The notes below the pieces were generated by a model. It was given only the letters and a program-made list of their open reading frames with translations, did no database searches and had not been told where the DNA came from. DNA of 62,529 nucleotides from Nitrospirota bacterium (GTDB lineage: Bacteria > Nitrospirota > Thermodesulfovibrionia > Thermodesulfovibrionales > UBA9159): NCBI GenBank assembly GCA_037441365.1, contig JBBISG010000005.1, positions 1 through 62,529 on the forward strand, in the 5' to 3' direction. Below, one piece after another: positions 2,997-52,280 of the stretch; position 1 is the stretch's first letter, and each line of letters begins with the position of its first letter. The position numbers were made by a program, and so were the translations under genes.

Positions 2997-2998
2997 AA

Positions 2999-7826: not shown

Positions 7827-7832
7827 CCGTTT

Positions 7833-9993: not shown

Positions 9994-9998
9994 AGATA

Positions 9999-10040: not shown

Positions 10041-10057
10041 CCTGTCTGGCAAGCAAC

Positions 10058-11068: not shown

Positions 11069-11181
11069 AACTTCTTACCTCCTTCTAAGTTTAAGATTCA
11101 GGTTCTCTAAATGAGAACTCTCTGGAATTTTATATCAGTATTATATCTGAGGTGCAACATTTTCTTATCATCCCTAGAGTA

Positions 11182-11197
11182 AGCAAGATTTATGCCA
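11182..11197 (-). promoter_or_regulatory. Sigma54 -24/-12 promoter of the rhodanese gene
   Basis: Minus strand TGGCATAAATCTTGCT matches TGGCA-N6-TTGC spacing. Confidence 0.8.
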
Positions 11198-11238
11198 TAT
11201 CAATACTATTCACCTTTCTGGTCTTTATTGTATATTAC

Positions 11239-11287
11239 CTGTTCTGAACGGCACAGAAGGGCTAACCTGCTGTGCTAAAAGGGACAG
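11239..11287. promoter_or_regulatory. Two enhancer (UAS) sites CTGT-N10-ACAG
   Basis: CTGTTCTGAACGGCACAG (11239-11256) and CTGTGCTAAAAGGGACAG (11270-11287). Confidence 0.65.
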
Positions 11288-11342
11288 TTATCTTCTCTTA
11301 TAACCGCTTACTGCCAGGCATCGGAGTATTTTATAATAAGAC

Positions 11343-36599: not shown

Positions 36600-36785
36600 G
36601 TGGCAAATCCTACACATAGGCATACGAGGTCAAGGAGAGACAAGAGAAGGGCAAACTGGAGGGGTCAGATGCCAGATCTCACTGTCTGCCCCGAGTGCAA
36701 GGAACTTAAGGAGTCCCACAGGGTATGCTTGAGCTGCGGCTCCTATAATGGCCGAAAGGTTCTTGAAATAGTTGAGAAGGAATGA
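36600..36785 (+). CDS. rpmF: 50S ribosomal protein L32
   Basis: SRRDKRR, CPEC...HRVCLSCGSY. Confidence 0.95.
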   Translation: MANPTHRHTRSRRDKRRANWRGQMPDLTVCPECKELKESHRVCLSCGSYNGRKVLEIVEKE

Positions 36786-37804
36786 GAGTTGCCCTTGATG
36801 CAATGGGGGGTGACTTTGCCCCTGCCGTCACTGTCGAGGGCGCTGTCGAGGCGGTTAAAGAGGGTGAAGACATCGAGATCATCCTTGTCGGCGATGAGGC
36901 CTCAATAAAGAGAGAACTTTCTGGTAAGAAATACCCCAAAAACAGGCTTCAGATAAGGCATGCATCCCAGACCATCGGGATGGATGAGCCAGCGCTTTCT
37001 GCCGTAAGAAAGAAGAAAGACTCATCCATAAGGAGGGCCGTCGAGCTTGTAAAGAACAGAGAGGCTGACGCTGCTGTGAGTGCGGGCCATTCAGGTGCAG
37101 CCATGGCAATAGCATTACTCATGCTCGGCGCATCAAGGGGTGTTGACAGGCCAGCCATTGCAACGATAATGCCCACATTAAAAGGACCCTTTGTGCTCAT
37201 TGATGCAGGCGCCAATGTCGATTGTGCTCCTGAGAATCTATTCCAGTTTGCCTTGATGGGCGATGCCTACTGCAGGGCGATGCTTGGCATGCAGGAGCCG
37301 CGGATCGCACTTTTGAGCATAGGAGAGGAGGATACCAAGGGCAATGTCCTCACAAAAGAGGCATTCGGTCTTCTCAGGGATTCAGGCATAAGGTTTATCG
37401 GGAATATCGAAGGGAAGGATATCTTTTCAGGCAATGCAGATGTGGTAGTCTGCGATGGTTTTATAGGGAACATAGTGCTTAAGACGAGTGAGGGACTTGC
37501 AGATGTCATACTAAAGATGCTGAGAAGGGAGATAGCAGATGTGGCCACAGGGAGGATCGGCTATCTCTTCATGAAACCTGCCCTCAGGAATTTCAAAAAG
37601 AAGACAGATTATGCTGAGTATGGAGGTGCACCTCTGCTCGGCATAAACGGCACATGCATAATAAGTCATGGAAGGTCTTCAGCAAAGGCCATAAGAAACG
37701 CTATAAAGGTTGCAGCAGAGTTCTCTAACAAAGGGGTGTATGAGGTCATAGCACAGGAGATAAGTAACTTCCATTCAAAGGTGGTTAAGGGTGATAAGGT
37801 CTAA
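36782..37804 (+). CDS. plsX: Phosphate acyltransferase
   Basis: ALDAMGGDFAP, DAGAN, CDGFIGN, GGAPLLG. Confidence 0.97.
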   Translation: MRVALDAMGGDFAPAVTVEGAVEAVKEGEDIEIILVGDEASIKRELSGKKYPKNRLQIRHASQTIGMDEPALSAVRKKKDSSIRRAVELVKNREADAAVSAGHSGAAMAIALLMLGASRGVDRPAIATIMPTLKGPFVLIDAGANVDCAPENLFQFALMGDAYCRAMLGMQEPRIALLSIGEEDTKGNVLTKEAFGLLRDSGIRFIGNIEGKDIFSGNADVVVCDGFIGNIVLKTSEGLADVILKMLRREIADVATGRIGYLFMKPALRNFKKKTDYAEYGGAPLLGINGTCIISHGRSSAKAIRNAIKVAAEFSNKGVYEVIAQEISNFHSKVVKGDKV

Positions 37805-38771
37805 GATCATATCTACAGGCTCTTACGCTCCTGAGAAGGTCCTCACAAACCTTGACCTCGAAAGGATGGTCGATACATCAGACGAATGGATCACCGAAAG
37901 GACCGGAATAAAGGAACGAAGAATCGCAAATGAAAACCAGGCAGCCTCGGACCTGGCCTATGAGGCATCGAAGGCAGCCCTTAAGAGCGCTGCCCTGAAG
38001 GCAAAAGATATCGATCTTATAATAGTCGCCACAGTGACAGGTGATATGCCAGTGCCATCGACTGCATGCATCCTGCAGGACAGGTTGGGTGCCAAAAGGG
38101 CAGCAGCCTTTGACATTAATGCCGCCTGCTCGGGGTTCATCTATGGCCTCTCCATTGCTGATGGCTTTATAAAGAGTAAGGCCTGCAGGAGGGTGCTTGT
38201 GATAGGTTCTGAGACCCTCTCCAAGTTTACAGACTGGAAGGACAGAACTACATGCGTATTATTCGGTGATGGAGCAGGCGCTGCGATACTCGATGCAACA
38301 GAGGAGGATAGGGGGATAATATCCACAAAGATTCATTCTGATGGCAGCCTGTGGGACCTGCTTCATATCCCGGGCGGCGGTTCAAGGCATCCTGCCTCTG
38401 GCGAGACAGTCAAAAAGAGACTCCACTCTGTAAAGATGAGGGGCAATGAGACATTCAAAGTAGCTGTAAGAACCCTTGAAGGCCTTGTTGTAGAAACCCT
38501 CGAGGAGAATAAGATAAAACCTTCACAACTTTCTCTTCTGATACCTCATCAGGCAAATCTAAGAATCATACAGGCAACAGCAAAGAGGCTGAATCTCCCT
38601 ATGGAAAGGGTGCTTGTAAATCTCGATAGATACGGCAATACATCTGCTGCATCAATCCCAATAGCCCTCGATGAGGCTGTGAGGACAGGAAGGGTCAGGG
38701 ATGGCGATTACATACTTCTTGAGGCATTTGGCGGTGGGCTCACATGGGCCTCTGCACTGATAAAGTGGTAG
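37791..38771 (+). CDS. fabH: 3-oxoacyl-ACP synthase III
   Basis: AACSGF, PHQAN, GNTSAAS. Confidence 0.97.
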   Translation: MIRSKIISTGSYAPEKVLTNLDLERMVDTSDEWITERTGIKERRIANENQAASDLAYEASKAALKSAALKAKDIDLIIVATVTGDMPVPSTACILQDRLGAKRAAAFDINAACSGFIYGLSIADGFIKSKACRRVLVIGSETLSKFTDWKDRTTCVLFGDGAGAAILDATEEDRGIISTKIHSDGSLWDLLHIPGGGSRHPASGETVKKRLHSVKMRGNETFKVAVRTLEGLVVETLEENKIKPSQLSLLIPHQANLRIIQATAKRLNLPMERVLVNLDRYGNTSAASIPIALDEAVRTGRVRDGDYILLEAFGGGLTWASALIKW

Positions 38772-40914
38772 TAGTAGGCTCTGTATCCAGAACTCTCCTC
38801 ACAACGGAAAGTAGATAAATGCCCTCAAAGGGCTTTCTGATGAAGGCGTCTATGTCTTTATTCTTCTTTCCTATGTTGTATATCTCATAACCGGAGATTG
38901 CGATTATCCTGGTAGAGGGCTTGGTCTTCTTGAAAAAACCGATCAGCTCCATGCCATTAACAAGAGGCATCACTATGTCTGTTATAACAAGGTCTATCTC
39001 AGCAGAAATCTCCTTGAATATCTCTTGGGCATACACCGGGTTGTCCGCAGCCAGGACCCTGTAACCCTGAGATTCGAGGACGCTCCTTATAAAGCTCAAT
39101 AAATCAGGCTCATCTTCTACCACCAATATCATTTCTCTTCCTGCCATTGTGTAATTAGCAGGTTTCTCAAATTTGGGAACTGTCCTGTCAGTGGCAGGCA
39201 GATAGATCTCAAAGGTTGTCCCCTTGCCCACTTCTGTTTTCAGGTTAATCGCACCATTGTGTGCCTTAACAATCCCGTAGACGATGGAAAGACCCAATCC
39301 TGTTCCTTTCCCGTGTTCCTTTGTCGTAAAGAAGGGGTCAAATATCCGCATTCTTATCTCATCGGGGATACCGGTTCCCGTATCAGATATCTCAAGGACT
39401 GCATACCTGCCTGGTTTCAGCAACGCATGGATGCTGGATGCCTCTTGTTTTAACTCTACAAGTGATGTCCTGATGGTTATGGTGCCTCCATCTGGCATGG
39501 CATCAGCAGCATTCACAAAGAGATTCATGATCACCTGTTCTATCTGGTTAGCATCGCTGAAAATAACCGGTGGTGGGCCTTCGCTGATCTCTGCCTTTAT
39601 CTCGATGTTCTTCTTAGTCATTATCCGCGCTGTGAGTTCAAGGGTATCCCTTATGACATCATTAAGATTAATTGGTACGGCTTCATGGTCTCCTCTGCGG
39701 ATAAAGCTCAGAATCTTTGAAACCATCTGGCCTGCCTTTCGCGCTGAATTTTCAATCGTCTTTACCTTCTGCTTTGCATCGGCCTCCAGATTGCCGAACT
39801 CGCTCAGCAGCTCAACATTGCCGAGGATTGATGATAGTATGTTGTTAAAGTCATGGGCGATGCCGCTGGCAAGCATCCCTATCGATTCCATCTTCTGCGA
39901 CTGGAATAACTGCTCCTGAAGTCTCTTCTTCTCGGTAATATCCCTGTGGAGTGACTGGATGTATAACTCACCGTCGATCTCTATCGCCTTTGAGCTCACC
40001 TCGAGAGAAATCTTGCTCCTGTCATTTCTGTAGTGCTGGGTCTCGAAGATAAGGGCCTCGCCATTTAAGATTCTGTTCATCCGCTCTTCCTTTTCCTTAT
40101 AGTCACCTGCCTCTAAGAGTCTGATGGGTGTTCCGAGCAATGCATTCTTTTCAAAACCATGGAGTTCACAGAACTTCATGTTAGCATCAACTATCGTTCC
40201 TTCTCTATTAAGAACAGCAACGCCATCATTCGAGTTGTCAAAAAGGGCAGTGTATTTCTGGTTCGAGATGGTGAGATCCTTCGTCCGTTGTGCCACCAAA
40301 TCTTCAAGCTGTGTGGAGTAGATTTTAAGTTTTTCCTTTTCCTGAGAAAGGTCATATTCGAGAGAGAGCTTGTTGATGAAAAGCGTATCGTTGTAATATC
40401 TCCAGGCAATGCCAATAAGAGCTGTAGTTAAAAGAAAAATATTATTGTTTATAAAAACTTGAACATTGCTGATGCTGTCAAAAATTAATATCGGCACCAA
40501 ATAAATAGAGTATATCATAATGGCCATAATTATAGTGTTTTTAACATTAAAAAGAGGGAGGAAGCCGAGGCAAAACATAAAGATAATAATTATACCAGCG
40601 TAATATATAGATTGATGACCGCCAAATGACAATATCATCAACTCGACCATTACTGAAACAACCGTGGCGCCTGAAAAATAGATGCCAATTTGAAAATATT
40701 TACTTTTTTTTAATTTGTTTAATAAATATATAATCATGAATAGAGAAGCTGTTATTAACCTGTATGCGAGGAATTTACGGAAATTTTCTGGAGTTACGAA
40801 ATAATCTAATACGCTCAATGAAATAATGACAAAAGCTCCAGCAATAAGAGCAAATGACGCCCAAGATCTAAGTAACGATAAAACCTCTTGTTCTATATAG
40901 CTCTTTTTATCCAT
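38740..40914 (-). CDS. Hybrid sensor kinase: 5-6 TM sensor, PAS, HisKA, HATPase, REC
   Basis: Hydrophobic N-terminus, QSQKMESIG..AHDFNN, GTGLGL, DLVITD; its 3' end overlaps the fabH 3' end by 32 bp. Confidence 0.92.
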   Translation of the reverse strand: MDKKSYIEQEVLSLLRSWASFALIAGAFVIISLSVLDYFVTPENFRKFLAYRLITASLFMIIYLLNKLKKSKYFQIGIYFSGATVVSVMVELMILSFGGHQSIYYAGIIIIFMFCLGFLPLFNVKNTIIMAIMIYSIYLVPILIFDSISNVQVFINNNIFLLTTALIGIAWRYYNDTLFINKLSLEYDLSQEKEKLKIYSTQLEDLVAQRTKDLTISNQKYTALFDNSNDGVAVLNREGTIVDANMKFCELHGFEKNALLGTPIRLLEAGDYKEKEERMNRILNGEALIFETQHYRNDRSKISLEVSSKAIEIDGELYIQSLHRDITEKKRLQEQLFQSQKMESIGMLASGIAHDFNNILSSILGNVELLSEFGNLEADAKQKVKTIENSARKAGQMVSKILSFIRRGDHEAVPINLNDVIRDTLELTARIMTKKNIEIKAEISEGPPPVIFSDANQIEQVIMNLFVNAADAMPDGGTITIRTSLVELKQEASSIHALLKPGRYAVLEISDTGTGIPDEIRMRIFDPFFTTKEHGKGTGLGLSIVYGIVKAHNGAINLKTEVGKGTTFEIYLPATDRTVPKFEKPANYTMAGREMILVVEDEPDLLSFIRSVLESQGYRVLAADNPVYAQEIFKEISAEIDLVITDIVMPLVNGMELIGFFKKTKPSTRIIAISGYEIYNIGKKNKDIDAFIRKPFEGIYLLSVVRRVLDTEPTTTTLSVQRPM

Positions 40915-40928
40915 GTTTAAACATTATA

Positions 40929-41783
40929 TCACTTTTTACATAAAAAGCGACTGTATCTAAGATAGTCATAATGCGTTCCGATCATAACTTTAAAGTAACG
41001 AATTGTCTTATAAAAGTATTCCTCCGAAGCTCCTTTCAGATACACCTTAGACATCTGAAGTTCGCGTAATCGTGCATGAAGGCCCCGATCTACTATATCA
41101 GTTGTATCTTCACAATGAAGCACAGTAAACCCTGCCTCTTCTAATAATTGTTTAGTTTCCGCAATATTGTTTTGAAACCATACACCTTCTGCGTAGGTGC
41201 CTGGGAAGTCACCACCGGCATCGTTAAGATCTCCCTTATCACCTCTTGCCCAGTCATGAAAGCCCATAATTCCGCCTTTTTTAAGTACTTTGTATAATTC
41301 TGCTAAAGCAAGTTTTTTATCCATCCAATGACAGATTGTTTCATTGTGGAAGATCTTATCAAATGTTTCTTCGGTAAAGTCCAGATTGTGAACGTCTTTA
41401 ATCTTTCTTTCTATTAAGTGATCTACGCCTTCAAGGTGGTCGCAGTTAATTGCTTTTTTTATCTGGTCTGGATTAATATCGAAACCTATAATCTTACAAC
41501 CACATAACTTAGCAATAAGTCTTGTCGGAGCGCCGTTTCCACAGCCAGCGTCTAATACTAAATCACCCTTAACAATACTCATCATTTTTATTAATTTAAT
41601 AACTTCTGCCTGAGTATGATGGGAAAGGCTTTCCGTATCGAAGACCCTTCTATCTATACTCTTTGGGTCTACGCCAAAAGCGTTATACATTCTTTGTAGT
41701 TCCTCTGCGTTATAAACTGGAAAACCTTTATTTTCGGAGAAACTTTTTATTATATTTTCTGTCACTCTTTGTTTATCAAGCAT
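40929..41783 (-). CDS. Class I SAM-dependent methyltransferase
   Basis: VLDAGCGNG, GFDIN, KVLKKGG; AT-rich. Confidence 0.85.
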   Translation of the reverse strand: MLDKQRVTENIIKSFSENKGFPVYNAEELQRMYNAFGVDPKSIDRRVFDTESLSHHTQAEVIKLIKMMSIVKGDLVLDAGCGNGAPTRLIAKLCGCKIIGFDINPDQIKKAINCDHLEGVDHLIERKIKDVHNLDFTEETFDKIFHNETICHWMDKKLALAELYKVLKKGGIMGFHDWARGDKGDLNDAGGDFPGTYAEGVWFQNNIAETKQLLEEAGFTVLHCEDTTDIVDRGLHARLRELQMSKVYLKGASEEYFYKTIRYFKVMIGTHYDYLRYSRFLCKK

Positions 41784-42012
41784 TTTTATTTAACCCCGGC
41801 TTATAATGCTGCTCGCATATAAGCACTTTCATCCCTGCCTTTGCGAGATAACACCCGCAGACAAGGCCTTTCAGATATTTCTCTAATGCCTGCTGTAGAT
41901 GAAAAGCAGCGCCTTCTGCATCATCATTTGCAAGAAGTATCTCCGATCGCCTCATGTCAAGGCCAGCTTTATGAAACCAGTCTCTTGGCAGAGGAGATTC
42001 TCTTTTTTTCAT
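41776..42012 (-). pseudogene. Truncated HEPN toxin fused to a fragment of a phytoene-dehydrogenase-like FAD oxidoreductase
   Basis: DWFHKA...AAFHLQQALEKYLKG (HEPN N-half) joined to GLVCGCYLAKAGMKVLICEQHYKPG (Rossmann fragment). Confidence 0.7.
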
Positions 42013-42338
42013 AAAGGACTTTTCCTTTGTTTGTAATCTCAACAAAAAAATCATCCCCTATCTGCAAACGACTTGTCAGCTCCTCAGGGGTTACAACTAA
42101 AGATGAAAAGGGTATTTTTTTTCCTTATATCTGACACTATTCTCCGCACTGCTACACGTCTATCTATAGGCCTGTCCTTCGTCTCCTTTATTATCAAAAG
42201 GTCAATGTCAGTTTCTTTGTTAGGCATGCCATAAGCATAAGAGCCATAGAGAATAATCTTATCAGGCAAGTACATTTTTTTAAGTCTCTCAACCATGCGT
42301 GAGATTACCTTAGCTATATACTCATCTCTCTTCTTCAT
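42000..42338 (-). pseudogene. Minimal nucleotidyltransferase (MNT antitoxin), frameshifted
   Basis: YGSYAYG...DIDLL. An A8 run (42115-42122) shifts the frame; removing one A restores VTPEEL...GKVLYE. Confidence 0.75.
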
Positions 42339-42421
42339 AGCGGCACGACAGCCTCCTTTTTTAAAAACAGTATATCACAATATCACAGAGTAGTAGTATT
42401 TTCCCGTCTTCTTCCAAAACA

Positions 42422-42715
42422 CTATGCTGTAGCATCAAATAGGAACCCAGCTCCTTTTAAATGGATAGCGAGCATATTCCTCGCAGCTTGCTGCGGGGTC
42501 AAGCTATCATCAATCCTTTTGTTGGTGTCGTCAATTCTCTTATTAGTCTCATCGATGCGTCTGCTATGGTCGATCAGACGGGCATTAATATCATCAAGCC
42601 TTTTGTTAGTTAGATGGAGCATCGCCTTAATCTCTACATTCTCCGCCCTTATCTAATCAAATTCAGGGACAACGATCTCCTGGATTATCTTTTTAATGGT
42701 TTCAGCAATTTCCAT
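42422..42715 (-). pseudogene. Coiled-coil repeat protein with in-frame stop and truncated end
   Basis: MEIAETIKKIIQEIVVPEFD*IRAEN...RIDETNKRIDDTNKRIDD; TAG at 42653-42655. Confidence 0.65.
42479..42498. repeat. IS200/IS605-end-like GC palindrome
   Basis: CCTCGCAGC-TT-GCTGCGGGG at the truncation point of the pseudogene. Confidence 0.45.
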
Positions 42716-42770
42716 ACAATTTCCATATAGCCATTTTCTGATGTCAGAATAACAAACAACTAAGGCTATG

Positions 42771-43985
42771 TCAAGGTGAGCCAGTGAACTTTTTCACCAC
42801 CAGGCAAGCATTGTTGCCTCCAAAGGCATACGAATTATTCAGGGCAATATTAACAATGTGTTGCCTTGCCTTGTTCGGGACGCAGTCAATATCGCATTCA
42901 GGGTCAGGGGTTTCAAAATTTATAGTCGGCGGGATAATATCATTTTTTACTGTCAGGGCACAGGCAATCGCCTCGAGGGCTGAGGCTGCGCCCATTGTAT
43001 GGCCGAGCATAGATTTTATTGAACTCACAGGTATTTTCCTATAAAGAGGGCCAAAGACCTCTTTGATTGCCGAACATTCGTTTTTATCGTTTGTCGGCGT
43101 TCCTGTTCCATGGGCAGAGATATAGTCAACATCCTCGGGTCCTATCCCTGCCTCTGTCATTGCCTTTCTCATACAGCTTACAATCCCTTCTACAGAGGAG
43201 CTTGTCATATGATGGGCATCGCAACTCAGACCATAGCCGAGGACCTCTGCATATATTGGAGCATTACGTCTGAGGGCACTCTCAAGAGTTTCGAGAATGA
43301 CTATTCCTGCTCCTTCAGCCACCATCATGCCTTTTCTGTTCTTATCAAATGGTTGGCACTTCTCTGGAGCAACGGCCTTGAATTGATTAAAGCCTGTAAA
43401 AGAGATCCTCGAAAATGGGTCAGAGGCGCCAGCAAGAACTCTCTCTGCAAGTCCGGCTGTTATCAGGTCAAATCCATATCCGATAGCATAATTGCCTGCT
43501 GCACAGGCTGTAGAAAAACTATAAGTTGGTCCCTTAATATTAAATTCATTTGAAATCGCTGCAGATGTGGAATGGACAGGGAGTTGACAGATCAAGTTTG
43601 TGCTGACATCTTCATTCCTGACGAGTTTATCATCGATATATTCAATTACCTGAATTGAGCCTGATGTAAGACCTATGCAGGTCCCTGTTTTTAAATCAGA
43701 AAGCTCTTTTAATGTTAATCCAGCATCCTCAACTGCAAGCCTTGCTGCTGCGAGGGCAAGCTGTGATGCCCTGCTCAGATAAGGAATGTAATTCTCTGTT
43801 ATAAATTCCTCTGGTCTGAAATCCTTTATCTCTCCTCCGTTATGTGTGAAGTGTTTTGATGTGTCAAAGGATGTGACAGGGCTTATGCCTGATCTGCCCC
43901 TAATCAGACTATCCCAGAATTCCCTCCATCCGATCCCGATGGATGAGACCACGCCAAGACCAGTTATGACGACCCTATTTTTCAT
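42771..43985 (-). CDS. fabF: Beta-ketoacyl-ACP synthase II-like (active KS)
   Basis: STACAAG (Cys), SAHGTGT, KSMLGH catalytic triad intact. Confidence 0.9.
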   Translation of the reverse strand: MKNRVVITGLGVVSSIGIGWREFWDSLIRGRSGISPVTSFDTSKHFTHNGGEIKDFRPEEFITENYIPYLSRASQLALAAARLAVEDAGLTLKELSDLKTGTCIGLTSGSIQVIEYIDDKLVRNEDVSTNLICQLPVHSTSAAISNEFNIKGPTYSFSTACAAGNYAIGYGFDLITAGLAERVLAGASDPFSRISFTGFNQFKAVAPEKCQPFDKNRKGMMVAEGAGIVILETLESALRRNAPIYAEVLGYGLSCDAHHMTSSSVEGIVSCMRKAMTEAGIGPEDVDYISAHGTGTPTNDKNECSAIKEVFGPLYRKIPVSSIKSMLGHTMGAASALEAIACALTVKNDIIPPTINFETPDPECDIDCVPNKARQHIVNIALNNSYAFGGNNACLVVKKFTGSP

Positions 43986-44436
43986 CCTTCATGCTGAATA
44001 CGAGTTCTGCCTCTGAGACTTTTCTTTCATCTACCGTGGCCTCAGCCGAGACAAAGGCACCGTTGGGCAGGCTCTTCACGTTAACAACCTTTATCCTTAA
44101 CTGATCACCTGGGAACACTGGATTTAAGAATCGTGCCTTTACAGAACCGAAATAATAGAGGGGTTTATTTTCAGTTTCTTCTTTCCCATATGCGAATAAT
44201 ACTATAGCGGTCTGAGCCATCGCCTCTATTATGGCTGCTCCAGGATAAACAGCCTTTTCTGGGAAATGGCCGAGGAAAATTATGTCATTGCCTGTGATGT
44301 TTTTTATGGCGATTGCATGACTGCCAGGCTCTATCTCAATGACCCTGTCAATCATGATGAAGGGAAATCGCTGTGGGATAAGCCTCTTGATTCCCTCAAA
44401 GTCTATAGTTATTTTATCCTCACTCATATCGTCCAA
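43975..44436 (-). CDS. fabZ: 3-hydroxyacyl-ACP dehydratase
   Basis: IPQRFPFIMID, GHFP...PGAAIIEAMAQ. Confidence 0.9.
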   Translation of the reverse strand: MDDMSEDKITIDFEGIKRLIPQRFPFIMIDRVIEIEPGSHAIAIKNITGNDIIFLGHFPEKAVYPGAAIIEAMAQTAIVLFAYGKEETENKPLYYFGSVKARFLNPVFPGDQLRIKVVNVKSLPNGAFVSAEATVDERKVSEAELVFSMKDEK

Positions 44437-45646
44437 TTATAATCGCTGCATTCTGACCATAAGGGTCTGCAGAAGTTATCAGTATATTTTTTATATCCTT
44501 CTTTCTTGGCACACCACTGACATAGTCAAGGTCACATTCTGGATCTCTTTCCTTGTAGTTAAGTGTGGGTGGTATAATGCATCTCTGAAGAACTCCAAGG
44601 GCAGCGGATAAGGAAAGGGCACCTGATGCTGAATAGGTCTCGCCTATCACGGACTTAATCGATGTCACAGGTATCCTGTATGCAAACTCTCCGAGGGCCT
44701 CCTTCAATGCCTTTGACTCTAACCTGTCAAGACCCCTTGTTGAATTGGCGCATGATATGACGCAATCTATCTCCTGAGGCATGATTAAGGCATCATTAAG
44801 GGCAATTTCGATCGCCTTTTTAAGACCCCTCCCATCATGATTGAATCCAATCTCGGCCTCAGGGTCAAAGGAATTCCCACAGCCCTTTAATACAGCAAGA
44901 ATATCAGCACCCCTTTCAATGGCATGGCCTTCTTCTTCAAGGATGATTACCCCGGCACTTTCTGAAAGAATTAGACCATTTCTCCTTGCATCAAAGGGAC
45001 AGCAGATGGGCTCTGAACCATCAATTCCTGATAGACAGCCAAGTTTATAAAAACCCATGAAGGTCTCCTCGCACAGCTCCTCAACACCTCCTGCAAGAAC
45101 GACCTTCGCCCGTTTCATTCTTATAAAATCTCCAGCATAGGATATTACATCGAGACTGGCACAGAACCCTGTAGAGATAGTCGTATTGAAGCCCTTGATA
45201 TAGAACCTTATTGATATCTGGCTTGCTGGAGAATTAATAACGGTATTCGGAAAGTGTGAGGGGTTTACAAATTTTGGTCCCTCAATAAGGCCGGTCCTAT
45301 CGAACTGTGAGATACTGTGAAGGCTGCCGAAGGTCGAGCCGATCGAGACGCCTGTTGAGTGAGTAGTATCTTCGTCAATAACAAGCCTGCTGTCATCAAT
45401 AGCCAGTCGGGCGGCAGAGCATACGAGTCTCGTGCTTCGATCGAGGTCTCTGAGGCCCTTCTTGCCGAGGAATTCAACAGGGTCGAAATCAACCTCTCCC
45501 CCGATATGAACCCTGAAAGGAGAGGTATCAAAGAGCGTTATCTCCCTGAAGCCGCTTTTGCCCATTGTCAGGGCCTCCCAGAAATTCTCCCTTCCTACCC
45601 CGATGGGCGAAAGGACGCCCATGCCTGTTATAACTATCCTCATCAT
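44420..45646 (-). CDS. Catalytically degenerate ketosynthase (chain-length-factor-like)
   Basis: KS fold with STGFCAS in place of STACAAG, SCANST in place of AHGTGT, and VIGE in place of LGH. Confidence 0.8.
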   Translation of the reverse strand: MMRIVITGMGVLSPIGVGRENFWEALTMGKSGFREITLFDTSPFRVHIGGEVDFDPVEFLGKKGLRDLDRSTRLVCSAARLAIDDSRLVIDEDTTHSTGVSIGSTFGSLHSISQFDRTGLIEGPKFVNPSHFPNTVINSPASQISIRFYIKGFNTTISTGFCASLDVISYAGDFIRMKRAKVVLAGGVEELCEETFMGFYKLGCLSGIDGSEPICCPFDARRNGLILSESAGVIILEEEGHAIERGADILAVLKGCGNSFDPEAEIGFNHDGRGLKKAIEIALNDALIMPQEIDCVISCANSTRGLDRLESKALKEALGEFAYRIPVTSIKSVIGETYSASGALSLSAALGVLQRCIIPPTLNYKERDPECDLDYVSGVPRKKDIKNILITSADPYGQNAAIIIGRYE

Positions 45647-46404
45647 TAACCTAAGAGACTCAATCCTCCATCAATCTCGATAGTCTGCCCTGTTAGATAC
45701 ATGGAATCCTCGCTGCAGAGGAACAATACAACCCTTGCTACCTCTTCGGGGCTTCCGAACCTTCCCACCGGGATTGTTTGAAGAAGTCTCTGCCTGTAAT
45801 CCTGATTCAGTTTCCCTGTCATGTCAGTATCAATGAAGCCAGGGGCGATGGCATTTACCCTTATGTTATATGGTGCAACCTCCTTTGCGAGGGCCTTTGT
45901 GAAACCTATTATGCCTGCCTTTGCAGCAGCGTAATTTGTCTGGCCAGGAAGTGGATGAAGCCCGCTTGAAGAGGAGATATTAACAATAATTCCGCTCTTC
46001 TGCTTCAGGAAGGTAATGATGCAAGATCGTGTCATATTAAATACACCTGTCAGATCTGTATCTATAACATCGGCCCATTCTCCCTTAGACATCATGAAGA
46101 GAGATTTGTCTTTCGTTATTCCTGCGTTGTTTATGACTATATCGAGCCTACCGAAGGCTCTCTTGACAGAATCGACAAAATCTCTTATACCTTCATAGTC
46201 ACGGACATCTACCTGTGCAGACATAACCTGCCTTCCCATAGCCTCTACTTCCATAGTAAGGGATTCAGCAAGGTCCTTCCTTGATGCATAGGTAAAGGCA
46301 CAGTCAGCCCCCTCCCTGCAAAGGGCAAGAGCAATTGCCCTTCCGATGCCCCTTGTCGCTCCTGTTACGATAGCTACCTTATCGAAAAGCAACCCCTTTT
46401 CCAT
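45646..46404 (-). CDS. fabG: 3-oxoacyl-ACP reductase
   Basis: TGATRGIG, NNAGITKD, YAAAK. Confidence 0.9.
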   Translation of the reverse strand: MEKGLLFDKVAIVTGATRGIGRAIALALCREGADCAFTYASRKDLAESLTMEVEAMGRQVMSAQVDVRDYEGIRDFVDSVKRAFGRLDIVINNAGITKDKSLFMMSKGEWADVIDTDLTGVFNMTRSCIITFLKQKSGIIVNISSSSGLHPLPGQTNYAAAKAGIIGFTKALAKEVAPYNIRVNAIAPGFIDTDMTGKLNQDYRQRLLQTIPVGRFGSPEEVARVVLFLCSEDSMYLTGQTIEIDGGLSLLG

Positions 46405-46426
46405 GATTGGTTAAGTATCTTATTTC

Positions 46427-46561
46427 TGTCATTCCCAATTTGATGGGAATCCAGTGCTTTATCCTATTTCCGGGTTCCTGCTTTCGCTCGAATGACAACT
46501 AACAGGATCCATTGTCGGGCAGATGCCTGCCCTACCAGTAGGACAGCCGAAACGGCTGTCC
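46427..46561. repeat. Cluster of REP-like palindromes
   Basis: TGTCATTCCC..GGGAATCCAG...GAATGACA element (46427-46497); GTCGGGCAG..CTGCCCTAC (46514-46535); GTAGGACAGCCG-AAA-CGGCTGTCC (46538-46561). Confidence 0.7.
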
Positions 46562-46578
46562 GAACTATCGCTACATGT

Positions 46579-47625
46579 TTACTTTGTTGCCGTATAGAAG
46601 ATTATCATTTCTGACCTGACACGGGTTACCGACAATGCACTATCAGGGATTCCAGCCTGTTTGAGCAATCTGTCGAAGTCATCCTTTGTTCGCTGCAGGA
46701 ATCCGTCCCAGTCAGCTATCCATTGGTATGGTTGAGGCTTGTAGTAATTTACATCCTTAAAGGCTGCTATGAGTTTTCCTCCGGGATTGAGCAGGGCATA
46801 CAGGGCATTCAGCAGCTTCACGAGGAAGTTATCAGGCAGGTAATCGAAGTAGCCCACGCTATAGATTACATCCTGCATGCCGAATTCCTCCATGTTCAGC
46901 TCGTGGTCGAACATCCTGAGGGCATTGTATTTAAGGAATTGAATATGGTCAGATGGAATATCGGTATATCCTAAACGGTTGAGGGCGAAATTCAGGGCAT
47001 CAGAGTCAAGGTCGATGCATGTAAACCTTGCGCCAGACTCTTCAATATCAGGGGCCAGTTCAAAAACCTCACGGCATGAACCACACGCTATATCGAGGAC
47101 CCTCGGGTTCTTCCTGTCAGCCAGCTCTTCTTCAAGCAGGTCCCTGAGTTTTGCTATCCTCTCCCTGACGCCGATTGCGAGTGGTGTGGAAAGCATATAT
47201 CTGTCCAGATAGTATCCTATGCCCTCTGATATAGGTGTGTTCCTGTATATGATCTCCAGGGTCTTATAATCCCCCTGATAACCCTGTGGCCATGTCCTTG
47301 CCCGGTTTATGCAATAGCTTTTAGACAGGATGGAATCTGTCTTTTCGCGGAATCTGACCCGGGCATCCTTTACGACCTGTTTATCAAGAACCCCTTGCTC
47401 GAATTCTTCAAAGACATCGGTCATCTCTGTAAAGGCTGCTACTATTGCATCTAAGAGTTCACCGGGATTCTCTGCAGGATCGGAACATCTCTTCTCGATC
47501 TCCTTTATTTGTTTGTTGAATCGTTCTGTTGCACTATCGAGTATTGTGATATATCTTTCTCTCTCCTCACCGACAAACAGAACATTTCCTTTGATCTCCT
47601 CATTCGGGTAGGTTAAGTTTTGCAT
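46579..47625 (-). CDS. PhcB-like SAM-dependent methyltransferase (3-hydroxy fatty acid methyl ester synthase family)
   Basis: RARTWPQGYQGDYKTLEIIY resembles the PhcB-family P.GY.GD motif; VLDIACGSCRE, IYSVGYFDYL, LNPGG; AAGGAGG RBS. Confidence 0.75.
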   Translation of the reverse strand: MQNLTYPNEEIKGNVLFVGEERERYITILDSATERFNKQIKEIEKRCSDPAENPGELLDAIVAAFTEMTDVFEEFEQGVLDKQVVKDARVRFREKTDSILSKSYCINRARTWPQGYQGDYKTLEIIYRNTPISEGIGYYLDRYMLSTPLAIGVRERIAKLRDLLEEELADRKNPRVLDIACGSCREVFELAPDIEESGARFTCIDLDSDALNFALNRLGYTDIPSDHIQFLKYNALRMFDHELNMEEFGMQDVIYSVGYFDYLPDNFLVKLLNALYALLNPGGKLIAAFKDVNYYKPQPYQWIADWDGFLQRTKDDFDRLLKQAGIPDSALSVTRVRSEMIIFYTATK

Positions 47626-47865: not shown

Positions 47866-49347
47866 TCATCCTGCAAGTTCCTGTTCCAACCACCTCGTGG
47901 GAAGGATGAGTCGGAAGGTGCTTCCTCTTTCCACTTCGCTTTCAACAATAATGTCGCCTTTATGTTCCTCTACGATCTGTTTTACCAGTGGTAGACCCAT
48001 ACCTATTCTGTGCCTTTTTGTGCTGTAGAAGAGGCTGAATATCTTCGATATGTCTTCCTTTGGAATGCCTTTGCCGGTGTCGGTTACACTGATGATCACA
48101 CGATCCTGGTCAGAAGCTGTCAATATTGTTATCGTGCCCTCAGGAGGTGTTGCTTCTATTGCATTCTTAATCACATGGAGTATGGCAACTCGCAGGAGTT
48201 GTCTGTTTGCCACAAATCTCAGGGGGGATTCAGAGAGTTTTACAGAAAGGTTAATATTTTTTCCTCTCCTCTCGCTTTCAATCAAAGGTAGAACACTCTG
48301 GACTATCTCGTTCATATCCTCAACCCTGAACATGATCTGTCTGTTTTTCAGGATTGTCTCGTAATCCCTGACGATGGAATCGAGCTTCTGTGCTTCGATC
48401 AGCAGGTCTGTCATTCTCTCCTTAAGGGGTTCTGATATAGCCTCTTTTTTGAGGATGCGGTTGAATGTCCCTGCTATTGCTGTTACAGGATTCCTGACAC
48501 GGTCTGCCACGCTGAGGGCTATTAAGTTCAGCGTCCTCTCTGCACATATCGATTCCATATCGCGGTTCAGGTTCATAAGCTCGAGGTTTATTTCCTCGAT
48601 CCTCTTCCTATCAGAGTCTATCCGGTTGTAAAGCCCTGTAAAACGCATATCTATTATGAGAAAGATAATGCCGAATAGTAACGTGTAGATTCCGATGAAT
48701 ACTGCCACAACCTTTCTCGATGCAGCAAGGGGCATACCGATAGGTATATATACAAATTTAGCATCTACTAACTCACCGATCTTTCTATCAAAACCTGCTG
48801 TCGGGCCGTATCTCTCTACCAGTTCCTTGGGGGCCACAGCAGGGCTGCCGTGGCATGACAGACAATCAGCGGTGAAGGATTCGCCTGCCCTTGCAATCAC
48901 ATAATACTCTCCATCAGGTCTTGTCCTGAATCCCCGCCACTCCTTTAATTCCCTGTTCCCTATAAAGGTATCTATAATCCTTGACTCGAATTCATCGGCA
49001 GCATTAGCCGGATTTCTCGGACTTAATGATGCATTTTTATACACATAACCGGGCTGCTCTTTCTGAACCCTGCGGGCGATATCACCTGCCACATAAGACC
49101 TCGACATCCCCTCAAGGATGAATCTACCCGGCATCTCCTTGTACAGTGTTGGTCTAAGTTCCTCAGCAACATAGTGCTTTATGGCTTCTATTGTCGATAG
49201 ATGAAGCCTCCCTGCATCATAGGCATCTCTAACAGCATTGTCCTTCAAGATGATATAAGTGAGAGTGGATATAATCGGGAGGGATATGGCATAGATGGCG
49301 ATCAGCATCAGGCCAAATTTTCTTTTTGGACTGAGATTTTTAAACAT
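47866..49347 (-). CDS. Sensor kinase-like protein with periplasmic heme-c (DUF3365/Tll0287-like) domain
   Basis: Two TM helices, PRNPANAADEFE, CLSCH; HATPase motifs DTGKGI and GMGL; H-box reads ADRVRNP. ATG 49347 preferred. Confidence 0.85.
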   Translation of the reverse strand: MFKNLSPKRKFGLMLIAIYAISLPIISTLTYIILKDNAVRDAYDAGRLHLSTIEAIKHYVAEELRPTLYKEMPGRFILEGMSRSYVAGDIARRVQKEQPGYVYKNASLSPRNPANAADEFESRIIDTFIGNRELKEWRGFRTRPDGEYYVIARAGESFTADCLSCHGSPAVAPKELVERYGPTAGFDRKIGELVDAKFVYIPIGMPLAASRKVVAVFIGIYTLLFGIIFLIIDMRFTGLYNRIDSDRKRIEEINLELMNLNRDMESICAERTLNLIALSVADRVRNPVTAIAGTFNRILKKEAISEPLKERMTDLLIEAQKLDSIVRDYETILKNRQIMFRVEDMNEIVQSVLPLIESERRGKNINLSVKLSESPLRFVANRQLLRVAILHVIKNAIEATPPEGTITILTASDQDRVIISVTDTGKGIPKEDISKIFSLFYSTKRHRIGMGLPLVKQIVEEHKGDIIVESEVERGSTFRLILPTRWLEQELAG

Positions 49348-49355
49348 CTTATTTC

Positions 49356-50036
49356 CTATGTTACGCTGTCTTTCTGTTTCACCCTTTTCGCCTTCTTCCG
49401 TCTGTATTCTATGATATGCCATTTTCTGAGCATCCTCTCGATCTTATCCCTGTATGCCATGGCAATAAAGACCACTATTATCGCGATTCCCACGAGTATA
49501 GAGAATCTCCCATATTGATGGTGCCTTATGTAACTGCCGCCAAGGGTCAGGAGAATAGTGCCGAAGAGCCTTCCCGTGCCTCCGATTACGATGAATTCGG
49601 TGGTCGAGAGGTGTCCAAGGCCGAGGATATAACAGAGATAATCCTTGGGGAATCCTGGTATAAGAAATAAAAGGAAGATCAAGAATGCACCTTTATGATG
49701 GAGAAGGTAATCGAATCGTTTCAGTGTCTTTTTATCCACAATCCTATCCACAAAGGGTCTTCCGAATGCCCTTGAAAGGGCAAAGGCTATGTAAGAACCT
49801 GTTGTGAGACCTATGGTAGAGAGCACCACACCTAAAAGCGGGCCGTAAAGAAAACCACCAAGCAAACCTGTAACCTCCCCGGGTATGGGAGCTGCAACCA
49901 CCTGTATGGTCTGCAGGAGTATGAAACCTATGAATGACAACGGCCCCAGGGTATCGAGGAAATGGAGGAGGCGTTTTTTATCGAGAAAGAAACGGACTAA
50001 ACCAGTCTCATAGAGTATCAGTGTTAGGCCTCCCAC
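49356..50036 (-). CDS. TVP38/TMEM64 (DedA superfamily) membrane protein
   Basis: QVVAAPIPGE, LIPGFPKDYLCY; frame is open to about 50117, so the true start may be non-canonical (ATT 50099). Confidence 0.85.
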   Translation of the reverse strand: MGGLTLILYETGLVRFFLDKKRLLHFLDTLGPLSFIGFILLQTIQVVAAPIPGEVTGLLGGFLYGPLLGVVLSTIGLTTGSYIAFALSRAFGRPFVDRIVDKKTLKRFDYLLHHKGAFLIFLLFLIPGFPKDYLCYILGLGHLSTTEFIVIGGTGRLFGTILLTLGGSYIRHHQYGRFSILVGIAIIVVFIAMAYRDKIERMLRKWHIIEYRRKKAKRVKQKDSVT

Positions 50037-50187
50037 TACGAGCAGGAGTATTAAAGGCTTAATCCATATCCTATTTTTCGATCTTTCTTCTCTTTTAATC
50101 GCTTTATTACCTTTTACTTATCTGTTAGGGATTCACAGAGCCGTAGAGACCCCTCTGACCCTGTGTCCGTTTGGCCTGATACATAAA

Positions 50188-50958
50188 CTATTTTTTCTCA
50201 AGTCTCTCGATGAAGGGCTTGATCAGGTCTATTGGAACAGGGAAGATCGTTGTGGAGTTCTTCTCTGCCGCAACCTCAACCAGCGTCTGGAGATACCTCA
50301 GTTGCAAGGCCATAGGCTGAGACGCTATAATCTGTGCTGCCTCAGACAGCTTCTGGGCTGCCTGATACTCGCCCTCGGCATGTATCACCTTTGCCCTTCT
50401 CTCCCTCTCTGCCTCTGCCTGTTTTGCAATGGCACGTTGCATTTCTACAGGGAGGTCCACATTTTTTACTTCCACAGTAGTTACCTTTACCCCCCACGGC
50501 TCTGTCTGGAAGTCTATCACCTTCTGGAGTTCTGCATTGAGCTCATCCCTCTTTGTGAGTAGGTCATCAAGCTGACTCTGACCGAGTATCGACCTCAACG
50601 TGGTCTGTGCTATCATAGATGTGGCATAGAAAAAGTCTTCTACCGCTGTGATGGCCTTTATGGGATCAATGACCCTGAAATATACAACTGCATTGACCTT
50701 GACCGTAATGTTGTCCTTCGTGATTATGTCCTGGGTCGGGACATCGAATGTCACGGTTCGCAGGCTGACCCTGACGAGTTTGTCTATTATTGGCCAGATA
50801 ATGACAAGGCCAGGCCCTTTCACAGGGATAACCCTGCCAAGCCTGAAGACAACGCCCCTTTCGTATTCCTTCAGTATCTTGATGGCGCTGGACAGAAAGT
50901 AGATCACGAGAAAGATTACGAATAAGAAGCTCAAAAACGATGGTGCTAATCCTGGCAT
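50188..50958 (-). CDS. SPFH/stomatin (slipin) family protein
   Basis: [29 protein letters not shown]. Confidence 0.93.
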
Positions 50959-50959
50959 A

Positions 50960-52258: not shown

Positions 52259-52280
52259 TGTTTAACATTATAACATAAAA

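Follow-up and report, generated by a model that had tools for sequence, protein, structure and literature searches.

An AT-rich cassette comprising a methyltransferase gene and the membrane-sensor codons of a hybrid histidine kinase, exchanged as one unit in uncultured Nitrospirota

The locus described here raises the question of whether the membrane-sensor part of a hybrid histidine kinase and the neighbouring methyltransferase (MTase) gene were acquired together, independently of the rest of the kinase. The window, i.e., the whole stretch of DNA analysed, comprises 62,529 nt of contig JBBISG010000005.1 from a Nitrospirota bacterium (assembly GCA_037441365.1, here G000; 1,807,667 nt, 66 contigs). 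A preliminary description of these letters had placed an AT-rich cassette at 40420..41790, with a composition break inside the kinase gene near the junction of its transmembrane (TM) and PAS parts, and had likened it to the joint exchange of signal-tailoring genes and sensor domain in agr and comQXP loci.

The composition of the block agrees with that description. Its GC content is 34.35%, against 47.14% for the genome, and a scan by 1371-nt windows with a step of 50 nt found only 50 of 34,375 windows (0.145%) as low, many of them overlapping the locus, which places the cassette among the lowest 0.15% of genome windows. The lowest 1-kb bin of the window is 40001-41000 (GC 35.6%), and the GC counts first made by hand were all exact (17, 9 and 17 of 60 at 40441, 40681 and 41281; 30 and 31 of 60 at 39481 and 39841). 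Upstream of the block, lowered GC runs on to ~42770 over toxin-antitoxin debris (40.2% in 41784-42770), and the GC3 of KS1 is mildly low (0.41). The exchanged tract proper is ~40320-41868, nearly the interval first proposed.

For each gene, an expected GC3 was derived from its own residues and the codon usage of the genome. Kinase codons 1-180 have a GC3 of 0.333 for an expected 0.504, whereas codons 181-724 match the genome (0.535 versus 0.521). The soluble MTase is AT-rich as well (0.317 versus 0.529). Among the ORFs of G000, the 757 with a length of 300 aa or more have a mean GC3 of 0.524 (sd 0.053, 1st percentile 0.36). As the deficit is found at synonymous sites, amino-acid composition is not the cause of the break. 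Within the kinase, the best GC3 change-point is codon 167 (support interval 162-197), with a likelihood ratio reached in 0 of 2000 permutations, and the break thus falls where it had been announced.

The idea that nothing foreign is involved, the AT-richness coming from T-rich membrane coding and a lowly expressed enzyme, can be given hardly any probability. Indeed, second codon positions of the sensor are AT-rich as hydrophobic residues predict (GC2 0.283), and 7 of 13 orthologous kinases of relatives show a sensor GC3 deficit of at least 0.10. However, the deficit is synonymous, and hydrophobic 170-codon windows elsewhere in G000 show none: those with a Kyte-Doolittle value >0.4 have a mean observed-minus-expected GC3 of +0.010 to +0.014 (sd ~0.055), and only 46 of 3514 hydrophobic windows attain -0.17. 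Moreover, the G008, G032 and G022 kinases, which have no lipid genes upstream, display little or no deficit. Together with the identity and dS values towards the distant genome L040 and the replacement of the tract in a near-identical contig, both detailed below, these controls refute the idea.

The features of the locus are collected in Table 1. The kinase qualifies as a hybrid histidine kinase, HisKA (41.1 bits, cut-off 26.9), HATPase_c (90.3, cut-off 26.4) and the receiver (Response_reg, 62.6, cut-off 30.2) all being above cut-off; PAS_9 scores 47. The membrane domain displays six hydrophobic segments with short loops and scores 23.0 bits against MASE8 (PF20968), below the cut-off of 26.2, most relatives carrying a precomputed PF20968 match. 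Full-length orthologues of the kinase were found across the order, and the convergent arrangement of fabH/plsX and kinase recurs in G001, G029 and L042.

Table 1. Coordinates of the features at the locus, with the evidence or description attached to each
Feature	Coordinates	Strand	Evidence or description
plsX	36782-37804		Pfam; same convergent core-gene anchor as fabH
fabH	37791..38771	+	Pfam; core gene converging on kinase, conserved anchor on far side
Hybrid sensor histidine kinase, 724 aa	38740..40914	-	Membrane domain (MASE8-like, six helices), then PAS, HisKA, HATPase_c and receiver
Resident signalling core: linker, PAS, HisKA, HATPase, receiver	38740..40371	-	Genome-like GC3; 98.4% nt identity to X3/X4 contig
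Downstream recombination junction: coiled linker between last membrane helix and PAS, codons ~181-205	40300..40371	.	L040 identity drop (0.81-0.96 to 0.54-0.72), X3/X4 match end at 40371, GC3 change-point
Exchanged sensor module: kinase codons 1-181, membrane domain to linker helix	40372..40914	-	GC3, L040 and P0213 identities; replaced in X3/X4 contig
Class I SAM methyltransferase, 284 aa, CMAS/CFA-synthase-like	40929..41783	-	Pfam Methyltransf_11, CMAS
Fusion ORF: truncated HEPN toxin-like fragment in frame with oxidoreductase remnant, join 41868/41869	41776..42054	-	Pfam HEPN profile 2-43 of 117; NAD_binding_8 also matched
Remnant (25 codons, residues 17-41) of the CrtI-like FAD oxidoreductase belonging to the cluster, upstream end of shared tract	41794..41868	-	tblastn
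Nucleotidyltransferase fragment, MNT-type antitoxin-like, frameshifted in A-run near 42115	42084..42338	-	Pfam NTP_transf_2 profile 1-43 of 93
Small repeat-containing ORF, 66 aa (orf66)	42422..42622	-	No Pfam match; homology to the alternative allele starts again at 42507
FAS-II-like lipid cluster, conserved	42771..47625	-	Pfam, NCBIfam, synteny across order
KS1	42771-43985	-	FAS-II-like cluster member
FabZ-like	43975-44436	-	FAS-II-like cluster member
KS2	44420-45646	-	FAS-II-like cluster member
FabG	45646-46404	-	FAS-II-like cluster member
Second methyltransferase MT2	46579-47625	-	FAS-II-like cluster member

The MTase matches Methyltransf_11 at 71.7 bits and CMAS (PF02353) at 39.2 bits (cut-off 27, residues 55-260); no NCBIfam equivalog reached its cut-off. 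At an identity of at least 56%, its family counts 92 proteins, some of which bear the name CFA-synthase-like in their sources, and its closest solved structure by sequence is the phosphoethanolamine N-methyltransferase 5wp4 (E 1.8e-19). The FAS-II-like context and the names given by the sources suggest a putative action on unsaturated acyl chains of lipids, and the protein looks like a lipid-tailoring enzyme. Just upstream, the oxidoreductase remnant is 96% identical to residues 17-41 of the oxidoreductase of G026 (tblastn), a protein scoring 131.7 against TIGR02734, below the cut-off of 238. The full-length oxidoreductase, whose gene the cassette replaced, is absent from the G000 locus, with no other copy detected by tblastn in the assembly (91% complete), and the ACP of the cluster is also missing there; the lipid pathway may therefore be impaired in G000. 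An intact MNT-HEPN toxin-antitoxin pair was ruled out since both genes are fragments and the nucleotidyltransferase one has a frameshift in the A-run near 42115, a position at which X2 and X5 contigs are one base shorter.

The history of the block was first read from L040, another Thermodesulfovibrionales MAG with an identical order of KS1, ACP, oxidoreductase stump, MTase and kinase (P0002). In 90-nt bins, nucleotide identity to L040 amounts to 0.82-0.96 from ~41860 to ~40310 and falls to 0.54-0.72 beyond, downstream, with a gradual decay over 40350-40290. The cassette, i.e., MTase and sensor, is ~90% identical to that of L040, whereas the kinase core reaches ~66% (59-61% at the amino acid level) and KS1 76%; the proteins are 90% (MTase) and 86% (sensor) identical. 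Synonymous divergence (dS) stands at 0.33 in the MTase and at 0.45 in sensor codons 1-198, against saturated values in the flanks (KS1 1.87, core codons 199-590 2.27, fabH 2.06), and the dN/dS of the cassette, 0.14-0.17, indicates purifying selection. The TM sensor and the MTase thus share a history apart from the core, as the preliminary description held. The junction between remnant and MTase is the same in L040, homology being lost upstream of 41868; in G000, the HEPN/MNT insertion-deletion overwrites the upstream boundary of the original tract.

The converse situation, i.e., another allele on near-identical flanks, is found in a 17,522-nt metagenome contig present in X3 and X4, which may be one data set filed twice as contig size and depth are identical. 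This contig matches 38000-40371 at 98.4% and 42507-44000 at 98.8%, and carries 1833 other letters across 40371-41794 and 144 other letters across 41868-42507. Its kinase, P0213, is 97-99% identical to that of G000 in residues 201-720 but only 51% in residues 1-180, and shares 77% sensor identity with G001, a genome in which the oxidoreductase lies upstream. Judged from insert length and P0213 only, the alternative insert is consistent with a full FAD oxidoreductase standing where G000 has the MTase. Another kinase, P0214, combines a core 86-94% identical to that of G000 with a sensor 40% identical. The junctions of G000 defined against L040 and against P0213 lie within ~70 nt of each other. 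Relatives with a different sensor at this position, which the preliminary description had proposed to look for, thus exist, and the cassette is not identical in all relatives.

A MAG contig might join two co-occurring strains at the conserved linker, the chimeric kinase then existing in no cell. Such an artefact is very improbable, even though the Logan contigs of X2, a data set sharing its study with the probable source, break exactly at the cassette edges (40348/40377 and 41857/41867), which indicates that the assembly graph branches there. A second X2 contig extends beyond the stump into sequence resembling the oxidoreductase, and both allele forms, known from Logan contigs only, seem present in that study. 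However, the X2 flanks are deeper (9.2-9.7) than the contigs of either allele (5.7-7.5 and 2.8-4.8), which, although contig depths are coarse, fits alleles sharing flanks. L040, besides G000 the one genome in which this sensor type is known, has too different a core (~66% DNA identity) for any confusion; the reading frame is intact, the L040 identity fades gradually instead of stopping, and 99% of the words of the stretch are present in X1.

Trees of 38 kinases gave incongruent topologies for the TM and kinase domains, compared separately as the preliminary description had suggested (p-AU ~1e-4 both ways). The sensor tree joins G000 and L040 with support 100/99, a clade rejected by the core data (delta lnL 54.2, p-AU 1e-4); conversely, the clade G001+G011+G013+G017 of the core tree is rejected by the sensor data (delta lnL 130.9, p-AU 1e-4). 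In G001, G011, G013, G017, L042, G000 and L040, the GC3 of the oxidoreductase or MTase resembles that of the sensor, while that of the core resembles the host. The sensors of arrangements A, C and E form one clade each, and the adjacency of kinase and lipid cluster is conserved across the order. Across this order, composition and phylogeny link the sensor to the lipid genes upstream rather than to its own core.

The MTase itself varies in position. In seven other distinct loci (G017, G029, L042/L047, L045, L046, L049, L050), it occupies the FabZ-like/KS1 interval, or stands directly upstream of KS1 where the contig ends, and in three (L041, L044, L048; arrangement B) it lies upstream of a full oxidoreductase, making three different positions within the cluster. 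Most genomes of this set carry the oxidoreductase without this MTase; G000, L040, G017 and G029 carry the MTase without the oxidoreductase. The sensors of G017 and G029 are only 48-49% identical to that of G000 although both genomes carry the MTase. As the sensors of MTase-bearing genomes differ and the MTase lies elsewhere in other loci, the association of MTase and sensor is not a general one.

Taken together, these data show that the block ~40320-41868 is an allelic replacement cassette formed by recombination, including the oxidoreductase stump, the MTase and the six-helix sensor codons. It moved as one unit between uncultured Nitrospirota lineages, and the kinase is a chimera of an imported sensor on a resident PAS-HisKA-ATPase-receiver core. 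The donor was a lower-GC Thermodesulfovibrionales lineage. One crossover falls where the oxidoreductase gene encodes its conserved FAD-binding start and the other in the linker helix just ahead of PAS, the sensor part amounting to the first 181-200 codons, and close kin with a 97-99% identical core have the alternative allele with another sensor type. Taken whole, this explanation is probably correct.

Why enzyme and sensor travel together is a separate matter. A tentative reading, somewhat short of an even chance, is that they co-travel since they function together, the sensor having to match the adjoining tailoring enzyme. The MTase would alter the acyl chains that the neighbouring KS/FabZ/FabG/ACP genes produce, and the loop-less membrane domain would read that lipid, or the resulting bilayer state, from within the membrane. 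This coupling is favoured because the CMAS cut-off is passed, the six segments have short loops, the adjacency is conserved and the dN/dS is low. Nevertheless, physical linkage alone predicts the co-inheritance of neighbours, which is therefore no proof of a functional match.

Linkage without any such match has a real chance, albeit a limited one. The lipid cluster would be a variable island replaced by homologous recombination and the sensor simply carried along, its coding part being too divergent for crossovers, so that the first usable homology would be the kinase linker and PAS. In most pairs, the sensor is indeed less conserved than the core (36-56% versus 45-64% amino acid identity to G000). 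The low-GC3 zone has a left edge varying by genome from KS2 to the oxidoreductase and only a fixed right edge, as expected of an island abutting a conserved anchor, and fabH and plsX are core anchors just past the kinase; the three positions of the MTase also accord with simple carriage. However, although 1.6 kb of conserved core is open to crossovers, 8 of 16 kinases have their strong GC3 change-point (log-likelihood ratio of at least 12) at codons 161-209, and the two junctions of G000 nearly coincide. The purifying selection on the cassette also argues against mere carriage, as does the occurrence of at least three sensor types on cores 86-99% identical, which looks like maintained diversity.

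It is quite unlikely that the system serves pherotype-like cell-cell signalling, in which the product of the FAS-II-like genes would be a diffusible signal derived from fatty acids, desaturation or methylation would set its variant, and the six-helix hybrid kinase would be the receptor, defining private groups. Precedents exist in CqsA/CqsS and RpfF/RpfC, and two alleles with different sensors on near-identical flanks apparently occur together in one sample (X2). The layout is also like the polymorphic comQXP region, with its variable 5' and conserved 3' parts of the kinase gene, as outlined in passages of PMC12935306. However, the locus includes no peptide precursor, thioesterase or exporter gene, nor any cognate response regulator or Hpt adjacent to the kinase. 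The MTase family is CFA-synthase-like, a type acting on membrane phospholipids, and the neighbours further upstream are membrane-organisation genes (DedA/VTT, SPFH, NfeD). Returning to the coupled enzyme and sensor, an extension, itself unlikely, would be 'lipotypes': the tailoring of the acyl product (the CFA-synthase-like enzyme methylating it, or the CrtI-like flavoenzyme desaturating or reducing it) and a matched plug-in six-helix sensor would be exchanged jointly at the same linker joint, giving several private lipid-sensing or signalling groups per conserved core.

For two-component kinases, sensor swapping is mostly deduced by comparing domain architectures at great evolutionary depth and, to our knowledge, swaps caught in the act are essentially limited to Gram-positive peptide systems. 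The locus provides a dated, base-resolved sensor swap in an uncultured diderm phylum: one core (97-99%) carries sensors of 51% and 40% identity, and one sensor (86%) is found on a 60% core. The joint being always the linker before PAS, it offers a recipe for swapping intramembrane sensors without breaking signalling, of use in kinase engineering. The fidelity of the sensor to the adjoining lipid enzymes provides a testable clue as to which class of ligand the uncharacterised MASE8 domain recognises and, if the alleles prove maintained in populations, pherotype-like diversification would extend to lipid chemistry.

Among known systems, agr has a variable block made of receptor-adjacent genes and the 5' stretch of the kinase gene that encodes the membrane sensor. 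In passages of PMC12935306, comQXP is termed 'highly polymorphic', with a 3' part of comP that is conserved and a 5' part that diverges. As in both, the block here includes a neighbour gene and, of the kinase gene, just the 5' stretch encoding the membrane sensor; the 3' part is conserved and alleles cross lineages. The joint exchange announced by analogy with these loci is thus borne out for neighbour gene and sensor on a conserved core (P0213, L040), but its signal-peptide component is not: no agrD- or comX-like precursor was found in 40300-42800, where the ORFs are the MTase, the HEPN and MNT fragments and orf66, and only 14 nt separate MTase and kinase start. Further differences from agr and comQXP concern the partner, here a CFA-synthase-like methyltransferase or a CrtI-like oxidoreductase within a FAS-II-like lipid cluster, and the kinase, a hybrid combining PAS-HisKA with a receiver; moreover, the host phylum is Nitrospirota, and exchange is seen between genera and families as well as near-identical strains. 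The agr/comQXP-like architecture is real; a pherotype function would be a putative addition to it.

Multi-helix hybrid kinases beside fatty-acyl signal synthases are known in CqsA/CqsS and RpfF/RpfC. As in CqsS and RpfC, an N-terminal multi-helix sensor without a large outside domain precedes kinase and receiver, with acyl-chemistry genes adjacent. Compared with these systems as commonly described, a PAS intervenes here, and the neighbours are KS, FabZ, FabG, ACP and tailoring enzymes, with no CqsA- or RpfF-type synthase; we know of no modular sensor swap in either system. Membrane-state kinases of the DesK type resemble the proposed system in intramembrane sensing by a helix bundle with minimal loops and in linkage to acyl-chain modification, but kinase subfamily and architecture differ here and, as far as we know, DesK is not a swappable module.

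The BfaB/BfaA pair for 10-methyl fatty acids, as described in parts of PMC5660069 and PMC7791843, likewise sets a SAM methyltransferase next to a FAD-binding oxidoreductase for acyl chains, a likeness by description to arrangement B, whose MTase sits directly upstream of the oxidoreductase. Unlike in that description, the oxidoreductase stands here mostly without this MTase, and the MTase alone in four genomes. Finally, the replacement of capsule and O-antigen loci, as generally understood, similarly involves a low-GC variable block, mosaic boundaries in conserved flanking genes and alleles shared across lineages. Unlike in those loci, one boundary falls here within a sensor kinase, where two domains join, so that each exchange rebuilds a signalling protein.

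The cassette at about 40320-41868, made up of an oxidoreductase stump, a methyltransferase (MTase) and the sensor part (the first ~181-200 codons) of the hybrid kinase, has been swapped through recombination, and its joint is fixed at the linker between sensor and PAS domain. The exchange yields chimeric kinases, and it has done so repeatedly across the order. The taxon labels of relatives put the organism in Nitrospirota / Thermodesulfovibrionales. The kinase is built of a membrane part, with six hydrophobic segments, short loops and a sub-threshold MASE8 score (23.0 bits, cut-off 26.2), and of a core with PAS, HisKA, HATPase_c and receiver domains. The fabH and plsX genes lie on the plus strand, convergent toward it.

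Features of the lipid cluster and of the cassette
Feature	Position	Strand	Remarks
MT2 (second methyltransferase)	46579-47625	minus	
FabG	45646-46404	minus	
KS2	44420-45646	minus	
FabZ-like	43975-44436	minus	
KS1	42771-43985	minus	
66-aa repeat ORF	42422-42622	minus	NKRIDDT-like repeats, no family match
MNT-type nucleotidyltransferase fragment	42084-42338	minus	
HEPN fragment	41776-42054	minus	continues in frame into a 25-codon piece of a CrtI-like FAD oxidoreductase
Oxidoreductase remnant	41794-41868	minus	25 codons
MTase (class I SAM methyltransferase)	40929-41783	minus	284 aa, above the Pfam CMAS cut-off
Hybrid kinase	38740-40914	minus	724 aa, 14-nt gap after MTase

The best structure match of the MTase is a phosphoethanolamine N-methyltransferase. 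MT2 matched nothing in the PDB sequence set, although the deposited AmxMT1 is among its entries, and a resemblance of the lipid cluster to anammox ladderane clusters (for those clusters, PMC9821293) is no more than a possible lead. No full oxidoreductase is found anywhere in the assembly of the genome under study (G000), and its sole cluster-type ACP (83 aa) stands on another contig (C6:7149-7400), where an integrase-core fragment (C6:7967-8338) adjoins it, which suggests that the cluster was split by a rearrangement. The locus itself lacks both of these genes, so the lipid pathway may be impaired in G000. The MNT-type gene is out of frame, with an A-run near 42115, and the covering contigs of the metagenome runs X2 and X5 are one base shorter at 42115. 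An X2 contig carrying the MNT-type module runs into unrelated sequence on both sides, so this module also occurs elsewhere in that community. Another side observation is that the match of an X2 contig steps back by 38 between 42556 and 42519, inside the 66-aa repeat ORF, so the number of repeats varies. Upstream of the lipid cluster, 47866-54028 is a membrane-organisation and signalling neighbourhood with a Tll0287-like histidine kinase, a DedA/VTT protein, an SPFH/NfeD pair, GGDEF and HDOD. Promoters and terminators scanned over 38500-43000 showed no excess over shuffles, and Tandem Repeats Finder returned two trivial repeats only.

The preliminary description had reported an AT-rich block over the sensor and the methyltransferase, and its five hand GC counts all proved exact on recount. 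The GC content of 40420-41790 is 34.35%, against 47.14% for the MAG (1.81 Mb, 66 contigs), a value equally low in only 50 of 34,375 genome windows of the same length, and 40001-41000 is the lowest-GC 1-kb bin of the window. The GC3 predicted from the residues of a segment and the genome codon usage is 0.529 for the MTase (observed 0.317) and 0.504 for kinase codons 1-180 (observed 0.333), whereas codons 181-724 show 0.535 for a predicted 0.521; the genome reference is 0.524 (sd 0.053, 757 long ORFs). The break claimed inside the kinase gene is indeed there: a two-segment model places it at codon 167 (interval 162-197), a fit that was not equalled in any of 2000 permutations. Other hydrophobic windows of 170 codons in G000 have no GC3 deficit (mean +0.01; -0.17 reached by 46 of 3514), and therefore membrane coding as such is not the cause. 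This control, together with observed against predicted GC3, rules out amino-acid composition as the source of the dip, and a block that is AT-rich through composition alone is unlikely. GC3 is also lowered, less sharply, in KS1, KS2 and the FabZ-like gene (0.40-0.46 in G000, 0.38-0.42 in the relative G013). From this milder reduction, considered for G000, G013, L042 and G011, it may be that the entire middle of the cluster was exchanged in larger, older tracts.

The comparison took in 40 relatives that represent 13 families of the order and that are, like every genome compared here, MAGs or metagenome contigs; in them, orthologues of the kinase are full-length, sensor included. Their common layout is MT2, FabG, KS2, FabZ-like, KS1, ACP, a 472-aa FAD oxidoreductase and the kinase. 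The MTase is patchy, with orthologues in only 2 of the 40 (G029, 79%; G017, 70%), and when public loci are included it is found at three alternative places. In arrangement A (G017, G029, L042, L045, L046), it stands between FabZ-like and KS1; L047 is apparently the same contig as L042, and L049 and L050 show just the MTase-KS1 half. In arrangement B (L041, L048 with the ACP further upstream, and L044, where just the MTase-oxidoreductase junction is visible), it lies directly upstream of the oxidoreductase. In arrangement C (G000 and L040), it follows the oxidoreductase stump directly before the kinase. Three relatives (G008, G032 and G022; loci L031, L035 and L037) have MT2 directly upstream of the kinase and lack KS, FabZ, ACP and oxidoreductase; their sensors form one clade. 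A tandem pair of MASE8-PAS-kinase-receiver genes, with sensors from very different clades, occurs in L033 (G015, 7210-11490) and L034 (G004, 193-3944). A distant MTase homologue with a single in-frame TGA, present in 13 genomes (e.g. G005:C264:1833-2333 and G013:C53:31496-32002), is probably a selenoprotein methyltransferase; such families are present in the NCBIfam listing.

The exchanged tract is shared with L040, a 9.4-kb contig of another Nitrospirae MAG with the order KS1, ACP, 42-codon stump, MTase and kinase. Nucleotide identity in 90-nt bins is 0.82-0.96 from ~41860 to ~40310 and down to 0.54-0.72 through the PAS and kinase domains; KS1 shows 76%. The dS is 0.33 for the MTase and 0.45 for sensor codons 1-198, against 1.87 for KS1, 2.27 for core codons 199-590 and 2.06 for fabH. 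The G000 ACP on the other contig is 73% identical in amino acids to the cluster ACP of L040. G000 and L040 have the same stump-MTase junction, so arrangement C has a single origin. Homology is lost on the upstream side of 41868, since the stump there meets the HEPN fragment; in G000, toxin-antitoxin debris has overwritten that edge of the original tract. At the downstream edge, identity declines between 40350 and 40290, within the linker helix. GC3 in L040 is distributed as in G000 (MTase 0.30, sensor 0.29-0.32, core 0.53). Its kinase (2829-4616, 595 aa) stops after the ATPase domain, without receiver, and Zn-ribbon, RNase H, LysR and GH57 genes come next in place of fabH-plsX, the fabH of that genome being on another contig.

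Separate phylogenies of sensor and core, the check proposed at the outset, were built from an identical set of 38 kinases and conflict in both directions. G000 and L040 are sisters in the sensor tree (100/99) and are parted by a branch with support of 99 in the core tree. Their union is rejected by the core data (delta lnL 54.2, p-AU 1e-4), and the core clade of G001, G011, G013 and G017 is rejected by the sensor data (delta lnL 130.9, p-AU 1e-4). For 118 proteins chosen by sensor similarity, sensor and core identities to G000 are nearly uncorrelated (r = 0.11). The GC3 pattern also recurs in relatives, the sensor resembling the enzyme encoded upstream (oxidoreductase or MTase) and the core resembling the host (upstream enzyme, sensor and core: 0.26, 0.27 and 0.65 in G001; 0.25, 0.28 and 0.68 in G011; 0.41, 0.40 and 0.69 in G013; 0.22, 0.30 and 0.50 in L042). 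A sensor deficit of at least 0.10 is found in 7 of 13 orthologous kinases of relatives, one of 0.07-0.10 in 4, and none or a reversed one in 2; the step is slight or absent in G008, G032 and G022. In 8 of 16 kinases, a change-point with a log-likelihood ratio of at least 12 falls within codons 161-209. A tree of 18 sensors whose context is known recovers a separate clade for each of the arrangements A, C and E (84/79, 93/92 and 83/74) and scatters the common arrangement, the groups being named post hoc and the kin not independent. The sensor sisters G017 and L042 have no sharp recent tract; their identity is 0.53-0.78 throughout, so that exchange is old.

An alternative allele on the same flanks, with the divergent membrane part that had been proposed as a check, is carried by a 17,522-nt contig in X3 and X4, two runs labelled hot-spring metagenomes from two studies, in which it is equal in length and depth, so that they are possibly one data set. 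Three stretches match G000: 38000-40371 (39 differences and 3 gaps in 2372 nt), 41794-41868, and 42507-44000 (18 differences in 1494 nt), the last restarting inside the 66-aa repeat ORF. Other sequence links 40371 to 41794 (1833 letters) and 41868 to 42507 (144 letters). The encoded kinase, P0213, is 97-99% identical to that of G000 over residues 201-720, 85% over 181-200 and 51% over 1-180, and its sensor shares 77% identity with the sensor of G001, where an oxidoreductase lies upstream of the kinase. Since the 1833 letters fit ~178 sensor codons, oxidoreductase codons 42-472, a stop and a spacer, the allele is most simply of the common layout, judged by insert length. In another kinase, P0214, with a third type of sensor, identity to G000 is 86-94% for the core and 40% for the sensor (37% to the P0213 sensor); genome contigs searched with it gave no close locus. 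In X2, whose study also includes the probable source, contigs break at the cassette edges, and a second contig (depth 4.8) passes from the stump into oxidoreductase-like sequence; depths, which are coarse, are 7.5 for the MTase contig and 9.2-9.7 for the flanks. These observations would fit a single community in which the two alleles share their flanks. Junctions created by assembly error are unlikely. Parts of the window that X5 leaves uncovered were not counted as evidence, nor were the low word shares found for X5, X6 and X7.

We tentatively prefer the reading that sensor and enzyme travel together as a matched pair. In this view the adjoining genes make acyl chains that the CFA-synthase-like enzyme or the flavoenzyme would alter, and the altered lipid or the membrane state is what the loop-less sensor would read. 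Neutral hitch-hiking of the sensor with a neighbouring enzyme is nearly as likely, and is favoured by the variable left edge and by the three positions of the MTase. Of a few literature searches, the one on recombination of kinase sensor domains gave nothing on this kind of locus, the one on Thermodesulfovibrionales with fatty acid and phytoene desaturase gave no papers, and the one on MASE8 gave one relevant preprint. The block had initially been read as a pherotype-like swap after the manner of agr and comQXP. A diffusible lipid signal with true pherotypes is possible but rather unlikely, and it is the layout that stands in this comparison. The agr system has the same cassette layout. That of comQXP is likewise the layout of the cassette (PMC12935306).
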